The notes under the pieces are model-generated. The model worked only from the letters and a program-made list of their open reading frames with translations, did no database searches and had not been told where the DNA came from. Positions 8,223-10,240 of a stretch of 21,500 nucleotides of DNA are shown one piece after another. Positions within the stretch are counted from its first letter, which is position 1. Each line of letters opens with the position of its first letter. This DNA is from a virus (Duplodnaviria > Heunggongvirae > Uroviricota > Caudoviricetes), in the IMG/VR virus record IMGVR_UViG_2529292759_000004. The stretch is one strand, 5' to 3'. A program made the translations under genes and the position numbers.

Positions 8223-8776
8223 ATTCCAAACCCCATTTGCCCCGACTCATCTTCAAGCGGTAAAGGTATTCTCCCAGAGTAAGTTATGTTCAGATGTTTA
8301 CAGAAGTAATTCCAATACCCTACCAGGTCATCTGGGTTTATGTCATCTTCGATTGGAAACGCTATTCTATCACTATAGTATCCAGCTTCTTCATAGTATA
8401 CATGGTAGTGAGCACCGTAAATGATATCTTGGTACTTCGGATGATCGACCTTGTAACTATTCGTGTGTTTGTCAAAGTGATAGGTATCTACCGCGAAAAC
8501 CCTCTTGTTATGATAGAAAGCAATAATATTTATTTTAGGGTAAGAAATCGGGTCATCAGGTTCTGAATCCTGATCTGGTTTCCATTTCAGTTCAAACTTT
8601 AGCCCTTGTATAGGTATACAATCCTCATCCAAGGGGATGATATGGGCTTGTAGCCACATATCAGAGCGACTTGGTTTCTGTTTCCATTTAACGCCAGAAA
8701 AGTTAACTATTTTTTTACAATAAAGTACTTTATCAACTTCTACTTGGCTTGGCTGATAATCATCTATTTTTGCCAA
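8219..8776 (-). CDS. Hypothetical protein (185 aa), first gene of immunity-region cargo operon
   Basis: ORF starts 40 nt after the cI stop on the same strand. The track start at 8776 is TTG (first internal ATG is codon 40), so the true start is uncertain. Tyr/His-rich segment HYHVYYEEAGYY; no family recognised. Confidence 0.65.
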   Translation of the reverse strand: MAKIDDYQPSQVEVDKVLYCKKIVNFSGVKWKQKPSRSDMWLQAHIIPLDEDCIPIQGLKFELKWKPDQDSEPDDPISYPKINIIAFYHNKRVFAVDTYHFDKHTNSYKVDHPKYQDIIYGAHYHVYYEEAGYYSDRIAFPIEDDINPDDLVGYWNYFCKHLNITYSGRIPLPLEDESGQMGFGI

Positions 8777-8815
8777 TGTTTACCGCCCTGTAAATTGTAG
8801 ATAAAAGTGGTTTCA

Positions 8816-9475
8816 TCACCCAAACGTCTCTTCAGGCCATTGGCTGGCGATAACTTTCCCCACAACGGAACAACTCTCATTGCATGGGATCATTGGGTAT
8901 TGTGGGTTTAGTGGCTGTAGAAACACCTGACCGCTATCCCTGATCAGTTTCTTGAAGGTAAATTCATCACCACCAAGTCTGGCTATGCAGAAATCGCCGG
9001 GCTCAACAGCTTGCTCAGGGTCAACCAGAATTAACATCCCGTCAGGAAAGCTGGGTTTGGAACCTGTTGGTGCGGTCATTGAGTTACCTTCAACCTCAAG
9101 CCAGAATGCAGAGTCACTGGCTTTTTTGGTTGTGCTTACCAATCTCTCCGCATCGCCTTTGGTAAAGGTTCTGAGTTCTGGAGAGAACATCCCAGCCTGA
9201 ACATGAGAAAAAACAGGGTACTCATATTGTTTTTTAACTGGGGCCGATGAGTATTCGCCAACAGGTGAAAATGTCCCGTCGTGGTTGAATGATATGTTAT
9301 CAATACCAAGGTATTTAAACACCACACCAATATCACTAAGAGATGGATGACGAGATCCGCGCAACCAGTGTCCAATCCCACCCTGCGTCATACCTAGCTC
9401 TTCGGCTAACTTCTCTTGAGTTATGCCGAGCTCTTTCATTCTGGATCTAGCCAGTTCATACCATTTCATTTTCAT
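8816..9475 (-). CDS. cI: CI-type prophage repressor (HTH_XRE N-domain plus S24/LexA-like autopeptidase C-domain)
   Basis: HTH ...[21 protein letters not shown]...; Ala-Gly site (VQAGMF); Ser (GNSMTAP) and Lys (FKKL) of the S24 dyad. Track start 9517 is TTG; ATG candidates at 9509, 9475, 9469; AAGGA SD favours 9469/9475. Confidence 0.85.
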
Positions 9476-9586
9476 GTCCTTATTATTACGCTCTGTACTG
9501 GAACCATCCATGCACAATGTGTATTTTTACTTGTATTCGCAAAGTACATATTGTATTTTTTTATTCGTGTTTACTATGGAGGGCAT
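9476..9586. promoter_or_regulatory. oR operator / pRM-pR divergent promoter region
   Basis: 111-bp intergenic region between divergent cI and cro; repeated TTGTA/TACAA half-sites and the inverted 11-mer AAAGTACATAT (9541-9551); candidate pR -35 TTGTAT (9531-9536) and -10 TATTTT (9554-9559). Confidence 0.45.
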
Positions 9587-9802
9587 ATGAGCAACCTACG
9601 AAAATATCGAGAGTCACTGAATATCTCTCAAACAACACTTGCTAAGGCAGTTGGATGCACACAGGGAGCTATCGGACATTGGGAATCTGGTCGTCGCTTC
9701 CCAGACCTTAAAACATGCCGTGCTCTTGTTGCGTGCCTAAACAAGTTAGGCGCAAAAGTCAGTCTTGATGACGTGTTCCCGCCGGAACACAAAGCCGCTT
9801 AA
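9587..9802 (+). CDS. cro: Cro-type HTH repressor (71 aa)
   Basis: ATG at 9587 preceded by GGAGG; HTH ISQTTLAKAVGCTQGAIGHWESG; divergent from cI. The track ORF from 9416 is a non-ATG extension. Confidence 0.8.
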   Translation: MSNLRKYRESLNISQTTLAKAVGCTQGAIGHWESGRRFPDLKTCRALVACLNKLGAKVSLDDVFPPEHKAA

Positions 9803-9812
9803 TAAGCGGATC

Positions 9813-9858
9813 CGCTCTTTGTAACAACGGACATTCGTCCTACGTCGCTGAAAAGCGA
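9813..9858 (+). promoter_or_regulatory. nutR: boxA CGCTCTTTG plus boxB-like hairpin UCGCU-GAAA-AGCGA
   Basis: boxA at 9813-9821, spacer hairpin GGAC-attc-GTCC (9829-9840), boxB 9845-9858, directly downstream of the cro stop. Confidence 0.55.
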
Positions 9859-9943: not shown

Positions 9944-10240
9944 ATGGAAAGAACAAGTTACAGCAAACTATCACAGCGTGACGTTGATCGCGCAGAAACA
10001 GATTTACTTATCAATCTGTCAGCTATTACCCAGCGCGGTCTGGCAAAGATGATTGGCTGTCATGAATCGAAGATAAGCAGAACGGACTGGAGATTTATTG
10101 CTTCGGTCTTGTGTGCTTTCGGAATGGCATCAGACATCAGTCCGATTAGCAGGGCTTTTAAGTATGCGCTTGATGGACTCACCAATAAAAAACGCCCGGC
10201 GGCAACCGAGCGTTCTGAACAAATCCAGATGGAATTCTGA
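9944..10240 (+). CDS. cII: CII transcriptional activator (98 aa), hybrid: divergent N-terminus, lambda-type C-terminus
   Basis: C-terminal LTNKKRPAATERSEQIQMEF matches lambda CII; the N-terminal DNA-binding part differs. Confidence 0.85.
   Translation: MERTSYSKLSQRDVDRAETDLLINLSAITQRGLAKMIGCHESKISRTDWRFIASVLCAFGMASDISPISRAFKYALDGLTNKKRPAATERSEQIQMEF

Follow-up and report, generated by a model that had tools for sequence, protein, structure and literature searches.

Predicted CI and Cro operators in a lambdoid immunity region of probable VT2-Sakai type

The control regions described here lie in a stretch of 21,500 nucleotides from a tailed phage (Caudoviricetes; IMG/VR record IMGVR_UViG_2529292759_000004), hereafter called the window. 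Its genes stand in the order known from phage lambda, with divergent cI and cro genes flanking the right control region, oR, and with the left control region, oL, upstream of the antiterminator gene N; the annotated relatives agree with this reading. N (6761-7033, minus strand) is the first gene read from the promoter pL, matches the Pfam family N_peptide (E = 1.5e-32) and is annotated in phage PhiR57_1. The intergenic oL region separates N from two cargo genes (7470-8222 and 8219-8776, both on the minus strand), which occupy the space between oL and cI. The repressor gene cI (8816-9475, minus strand) encodes 219 amino acids with an HTH_3 N-terminal domain and a Peptidase_S24 C-terminal domain. 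It is separated by the 111 bp of oR (9476-9586) from cro (9587-9802, plus strand; 71 amino acids), which is followed by cII (9944-10240, plus strand) and then by O and P. The Cro protein is of the all-helical HTH_3 type, in contrast to lambda Cro, which has an alpha+beta fold.

The two cargo genes fill the slot that rexA and rexB hold in lambda. PADLOC matches them to the candidate defence system PDC-M24 (PDC-M24B, E = 4.7e-10; PDC-M24A, E = 4.8e-4) and, in Pfam, DUF1828, with a further match to DUF6978 that is below threshold; a terminator-like hairpin lies beside them (7445-7466, minus strand). VT2-Sakai-type Stx phages have other ORFs in the same slot, and the genes between cI and oL look like exchangeable, prophage-expressed defence cargo. 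At the 5' end of cII, where lambda has pRE, TTGCTGTAACTTGT (9953-9966, minus strand) differs by one mismatch from the lambda CII box TTGC-N6-TTGC. Such one-mismatch boxes are not enriched in the window (22 against 29 expected), TTGCTGTAACTTGT alone is not significant, and the window has no exact box of the lambda type.

CI is a mosaic at the level of its domains, and one may ask whether it forms mixed oligomers with lambda CI in double lysogens. The initial annotation of this DNA had stated that the repressor is not that of lambda. This is correct for the DNA-binding domain, but the C-terminal 135 residues (window 8816-9220, minus strand) match lambda CI at 134 of 135 amino acids and at 381 of 408 DNA positions. 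The divergent N-terminal domain aligns to the lambda repressor helix-turn-helix (PDB 1LMB and 1LLI) and is without the 14-residue arm of lambda CI. The missing arm may fit the freely varying centre of the operators described below. At what we take to be the equivalents of lambda residues, Q33 and Q44 are kept, S45 is replaced by G, A49 by H, and both N52 and N55 by R. In the lambda complex Q44 contacts the adenine at operator position 2; by analogy, the same contact here would fit both the A retained at this position and the covariation of helix 3 in relatives. CI and Cro share the pattern TQGxIGHW..GxR, with the recognition helix reading TQGAIGHW in Cro and TQGGIGHW in CI, as is expected if the two proteins read the same sites. 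PDB entry 28tn, an 82-residue "lambda repressor-like protein", is clearly homologous to Cro (E = 4.5e-17, residues 1-69) and could be used as its structural template.

Positions 7150-9850 of the window match Escherichia phages ev207, ev017, PhiR57_1 and PhiR63_2 at 100% identity. For the oL and cI-cro parts, identity is about 96.6% with the Stx1-converting phage AP005153, Stx2 phage II and the PA4-type Stx2a phages, the last of which carry the Sakai Stx2a prophage (PMC4587872). At the protein level, CI is identical to that of AP005153 over all 219 residues, with 100% tblastn matches in PA18, PA27 and HUN/2013, and Cro is identical over all 71 residues to ORF B58 ("putative cro") of AP005153. 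These identities assign the window to the VT2-Sakai or Morioka immunity type, which corresponds to Stx-phage CI clade I (PMC8951638).

Operators of this type are on record. Those of the Stx1-converting phage and of Stx2 phage II (Morioka V526) are annotated in GenBank AP005153 and AP005154, the AP005153 record listing six "putative operator" 17-mers, three at oL and three at oR. These six recur as VT2-Sakai operators in Table S1 of PMC10742460, and for putative operators of the VT2-Sakai type PMC4587872 cites Fattah et al. 2000 (Genes Genet Syst 75:223). All six have therefore already been predicted, publicly annotated and used in published work, and the initial finding correctly rediscovered part of this set. 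What is added here is an unbiased recovery of the six sites, together with population and cross-genus evidence of selection.

The two control regions share the 11-mer ATATGTACTTT, located at 7231-7241 (plus strand) in oL, with its reverse complement AAAGTACATAT at 9541-9551 in oR; both copies lie where they had initially been reported. The 21.5-kb window holds no further copy of ATATGTACTTT even with one mismatch allowed, and an inverted common 11-mer was obtained in 90 of 20,000 dinucleotide-preserving shuffles of both control regions (p ~0.005). Identity of the common word ends at 11 bases. The 11-mer is no unit by itself: it consists of the right half-site and centre of the operator OL1 (ATA-TGTACTT plus one base) and of the mirror-image part of OR1, that is, of one outer half-site (TGTACTT) and the centre of each. 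It is common to both regions, and inverted, because OR1 and OL1 both start at spacer nucleotide 6 of their own predicted promoter. The expectation that phages of the same immunity would carry the 11-mer holds in part: of about 75 same-Cro loci with both regions, 31 have the exact word in each, the rest being without the exact pair. AAGTACA is found in oR in 82 of 83 same-Cro loci, and TGTACTT in oL in 72 of the 75 that hold oL. The exact 11-mer is thus not fixed in the VT2-Sakai immunity type, and the shorter 7-bp cores are near-universal.

The repeat unit is instead a 17-bp pseudo-palindrome of the lambda style, nAnTACnnnnnGTAnTn, present three times in each control region. A motif search for a consensus of 15-17 bp, as the initial annotation had suggested, was productive: a palindrome-constrained, seeded, EM-like de novo search, given the two intergenic regions as input and no prior information, returned exactly the same six sites in a single register at widths of 11, 13, 15, 17 and 19. 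Their consensus, AAGTACAAATTGTACTT, has the form AAGTACA-nnn-TGTACTT with a TAC-N5-GTA core, and its information peaks at positions 2, 4, 5 and 6 and their mirrors. With the full matrix, the six sites alone score above 10 bits in the window, where the next best match reaches 9.7. When each site was left out in turn, it ranked 7th or better among 21,484 window positions, most of the higher places being filled by training sites. OL1 and OR1 score 18-19 bits, compared with 14.5-15 bits for OL3, OR2 and OR3, which also have the lowest symmetry (3-4/8). A fourth site was sought in the gaps of 32-33 bp, where nothing scored above 4 bits. The bare TAC-N5-GTA pattern is not significantly enriched across the window (5 matches against 2.6 expected), and three of the five matches lie in oL or oR; it is informative only through clustering and the full 17-bp model. 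The arrangement found is a tripartite one, with three related pseudo-symmetric 17-bp sites per control region, confined to those regions.

In oR, the top-scoring site OR1 (AAGTACATATTGTATTT, 9542-9558) lies over the spacer and -10 element of the predicted promoter pR, contains the inverted 11-mer and is identical to OR1 of VT2-Sa and AP005153; it ranked 1st of 21,484 positions when left out, and its core is invariant in 37 haplotypes. OR2 (ATGCACAATGTGTATTT, 9510-9526) abuts the -35 element of the predicted promoter pRM, with its centre at about -43, and varies among haplotypes at the central positions 9-10 only. OR3 (TATTACGCTCTGTACTG, 9484-9500) overlaps the predicted pRM -10 element and spacer, and its centre is 17 nt from the cI ATG. 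Both 17-mers are identical to those of VT2-Sa. In oL, OL1 (TAGTACGATATGTACTT, 7224-7240) covers the spacer and -10 element of predicted pL, carries the 11-mer (7231-7241) and is again identical to the VT2-Sa 17-mer. OL2 (CAATACAATTTGTTGTA, 7249-7265) overlaps the predicted pL -35 element by 3 bp; it and OL3 (TATAACGCTTTGTATTT, 7282-7298) each have one mismatch to their VT2-Sa counterparts at a non-core position, 15 in OL2 and 3 in OL3. The comparison with phages carrying the same cI, which had also been proposed, thus yielded four operators identical to those of AP005153 (OR1, OR2, OR3 and OL1) and two that are one base off, in the same positions relative to cI, cro and N. The differences from AP005153 are that the window is outside a Stx phage context, has another two-gene cargo between cI and oL, and has different inter-operator spacers.

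The promoters to which these sites are referred were placed by eye and by analogy, because a scan with the sigma-70 consensus missed pL, pR and pRM alike. Predicted pR (9531-9559, plus strand) has the -35 element TTGTAT (9531-9536) and the -10 element TATTTT (9554-9559); predicted pL (7223-7251, minus strand) has TTGATC (7251-7246) and TACTAT (7228-7223); and predicted pRM (9482-9510, minus strand) has TGGATG (9510-9505) and AATAAT (9487-9482), each with a 17-bp spacer. All three agree weakly with the consensus, pR and pL in 7-8 of 12 positions. OL1 and OR1 occupy the same register in predicted pL and pR, respectively, beginning at spacer nucleotide 6. The AP005153 record annotates a "putative major rightward promoter" near pR, a "putative maintenance promoter for CI" at pRM and a promoter over OL1-OL2. 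The geometry of the operators, with the O1 sites over pL and pR, OR2 at about -43 and OR3 over pRM, fits both this annotation and the hand-read predicted promoters, none of which the scan had called. The +1 position of predicted pRM, at about 9475, is the A of the first cI ATG, which would make the cI mRNA leaderless, as it is in lambda. The start of cI reads MKMKW (9467-9475, minus strand) and offers two in-frame ATGs, of which the first coincides with the predicted pRM +1; the second is 7 nt downstream of a Shine-Dalgarno-like AAGGA motif that would be present only on longer cI transcripts, for example from pRE.

The switch shares with lambda its 17-bp pseudo-palindromes, three per region; as in lambda, the O1 sites would lie over the core promoters of pL and pR, as these are predicted here. 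The centre of OR2 at about -43 of predicted pRM compares with -42 in lambda, and the distance of 17 nt between the centre of OR3 and the cI ATG with 19 nt. The half-site is AAGTACA and not TATCACC, yet the A at position 2 and the AC at positions 5-6 are those of the lambda half-site, and the helix-turn-helix is homologous. No lambda operator, of the form TATCACCGCCAGTGGTA, is present in the window at up to three mismatches, which, together with the divergent N-terminal domain, sets the region apart from imm lambda. Spacing is also different, being 32/26 and 25/33 bp here and 24/23 and 24/20 bp in lambda; because 32 bp separate OR1 from OR2 and 33 bp OL2 from OL3, as against 23-24 bp in lambda, pairwise cooperativity of the lambda style cannot simply be assumed.

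Phage 933W likewise has a Stx-associated lambdoid switch with cI, cro, oL and oR, but its CI belongs to another clade and differs in sequence. It has two OL sites only and is without OL3 (PMC4587872; PMC10742460), and footprints of its operators with the cognate repressor are available (Tyler et al. 2004; Bullwinkle et al. 2012, PMC3317979). For the VT2-Sakai type, the literature searched yielded neither footprints nor EMSA with cognate CI or Cro; the one EMSA found used lambda CI, which bound the VT2-Sa 17-mers weakly, with a micromolar apparent Kd (PMC10742460). This immunity type is not treated in the Koudelka review (PMC5977221) or in the "bully phage" preprint.

Variation within the type was followed in 80 IMG/VR loci with identical Cro and in three GenBank phages, which gave 37 distinct oR and 38 distinct oL haplotypes that differ by many substitutions and small indels. 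Variable columns number 2 of 48 at operator positions 2, 4, 5 and 6 and their mirrors, a class picked from the information profile of the window itself and from no independent source, as compared with 14 of 54 at the other operator positions and 55 of 130 in the spacers (p = 1.7e-7 for the spacers against the first class, Fisher's exact test). Within the operators, the variable positions are 8-10 in the centre, 7 or 11 beside it, and 1, 3, 15 and 17 on the outside. The TAC at positions 4-6 does not vary at all, in any of the six sites or any haplotype. Overlapping predicted promoter hexamers (OR1 with the pR -10, OR3 with the pRM -10) could add to the conservation of the cores; OR2, OL2 and OL3 give the same pattern as OR1 and OR3.

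Related switches occur outside Escherichia. The CI of Salmonella phage 101962B_sal5 is 69% identical to that of the window, and the phage has three TAC-N5-GTA sites in oR (26 and 33 bp apart) and three in oL (25 and 30 bp), where the window has centre-to-centre spacings of 26/32 bp in oR and 25/33 bp in oL. When species-representative genomes were scanned with a Cro alignment, relatives turned up in Erwinia, Rahnella, Thorsellia, Xenorhabdus, Rosenbergiella and Avibacterium, and the de novo search was then run on each cI-cro spacer; Thorsellia was left out, since its locus was too short to find cI. In all, nine other lineages (sal5, Erwinia, Rahnella, four Xenorhabdus, Rosenbergiella and Avibacterium) have three TAC-N5-GTA sites in oR, with spacings that are mostly 25-26 and 32-34 bp; for the four Xenorhabdus the search put the middle site in another register, and it was set by hand. 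The centre of the cI-proximal site is 16-17 nt from the cI ATG in nine of ten lineages, the exception being Avibacterium. Together, the population and cross-genus data are evidence that the six sites are under selection. Two metagenomic contigs with a Cro that is 99-100% identical, JAJXBQ010000280.1 ("MAG: Segatella copri") and JAEZIN010000021.1 ("MAG: Bacillota bacterium"), are probably mis-binned E. coli prophage contigs.

Across these relatives, the operator half-site covaries with the repressor. Where the first residue of helix 3 is Q, operator position 2 is A in 23 of 27 half-sites and position 1 is G in none of the 27. Where it is K or R, the counts among 29 half-sites are 5 for A at position 2 and 14 for G at position 1 (p = 6e-7 and p = 2e-5 for the two contrasts, respectively). 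T4-A5-C6 is common to both groups.

Taken together, the window very probably holds a lambdoid immunity region of the VT2-Sakai or Stx1-phage (Morioka) type, with three predicted 17-bp operators in each control region and the 11-mer embedded in OL1 and OR1. The analysis shows directly where the sites are, that they occur nowhere else in the window, that they are conserved, and how they lie with respect to the genes and the predicted promoters. The initial annotation had put forward other units as CI and Cro binding sites, namely palindromes of 5-base TACAA/TTGTA half-sites with variable spacers, the 11-mer being a separate shared element. The strings it named do exist and were placed correctly, TACAATTTGTTGTA at 7252-7265 and TTGTA-N9-TACA at 9531-9548; the 5-base arms of TACAATTTGTTGTA are inverted repeats, although the 14-mer as a whole is an imperfect palindrome, and TACA/TGTA is the inner part of the true half-site. 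As operators, however, they are very improbable. The two examples are spaced by 4 and 9 bases and are out of register with the other sites, and the de novo search picks the TAC-N5-GTA register at every width; the predicted unit is the 17-bp site with this core, three times per region. TTGTA-N9-TACA joins the predicted pR -35 element (TTGTA at 9531-9535, with TTGCA, in the hexamer TTGCAT, in many haplotypes) to the left half of OR1, and the outer TTGTA of TACAATTTGTTGTA (7261-7265) needs a G at position 15 of OL2 that is C in most haplotypes. The proposal of candidate operators survives to the extent that the 11-mer marks the promoter-proximal OL1 and OR1 of the divergent pL and pR; the TACAA/TTGTA palindromes were in the wrong register.

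That the 11-mer lies between the predicted -35 and -10 elements of both promoters, in the same register, might mean that it is only a trace of shared descent, or of gene conversion, between the core promoters of pL and pR and has no part in repressor binding. We consider this just as improbable: the motif recurs with dyad symmetry at four positions outside those spacers (OR2, OR3, OL2 and OL3), conservation is symmetric around the centre of each site, and the layout, with a covarying half-site, is kept in distant relatives whose spacers cannot be aligned. A less remote, though still unlikely, alternative is that only some of the six 17-mers are real and that, for example, OL3 or OR3 is non-functional. 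OL3, OR2 and OR3 are indeed the lowest in symmetry and score, and 933W, with its two OL sites, offers a precedent (PMC4587872; PMC10742460). Nevertheless, each of these three is the best or second-best non-training match in the window when left out, their cores are invariant in all haplotypes, and they have counterparts at the same spacing in oL of sal5 and in oR of other lineages.

For the preferred reading, a set of six operators, the steps of regulation can be outlined by analogy with lambda. CI dimers would bind the six sites through the armless, lambda-homologous helix-turn-helix domain. Occupancy of the O1 sites, which lie over spacer and -10, would block pL and pR, and CI at OR2, near -43 of pRM, would activate transcription of cI. 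OR3, over the pRM -10 and spacer, would serve to switch pRM off at high CI and may be the preferred site of Cro, which, having the same recognition-helix residues, would bind the same operators. The order in which the sites are filled would follow from the same analogy. The C-terminal domain, being identical to that of lambda CI at 134 of 135 residues, would provide dimerisation, cooperativity and RecA-stimulated self-cleavage, all presumably in the manner of lambda.

The cI-proximal half of OR2 (window 9510-9517) reads CAC or GAC and not TAC, also in Salmonella, Erwinia, Rahnella, Xenorhabdus and Rosenbergiella, a conserved "defect" that adjoins the predicted pRM -35 element. Considering this feature and the spacing, which is kept from E. 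coli to Avibacterium with 25-26 bp between OR3 and OR2 and 32-34 bp, or about three helical turns, between OR2 and OR1, we raise the tentative possibility that the repressor, whose cooperativity domain is lambda-identical, pairs its sites in another way than lambda CI. If so, the logic of the switch would differ despite the common C-terminal domain.

Of 5,426 complete E. coli genomes, 776 have the junction of oR with cI and cro (window 9440-9640), nearly always as a single chromosomal copy, and the VT2-Sakai type is among the commoner lambdoid immunity types. The same junction is found across phage taxa, in Traversvirus Stx phages and in the Lederbergvirus vB_EcoP-683R2. In the wider family, the way in which operator positions 1-2 covary with the first residue of helix 3 could become a simple predictor of immunity specificity. 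As the VT2-Sakai type controls the induction of Stx1 and Stx2a phages of the Sakai lineage, knowledge of its operators matters for models of toxin-phage induction.
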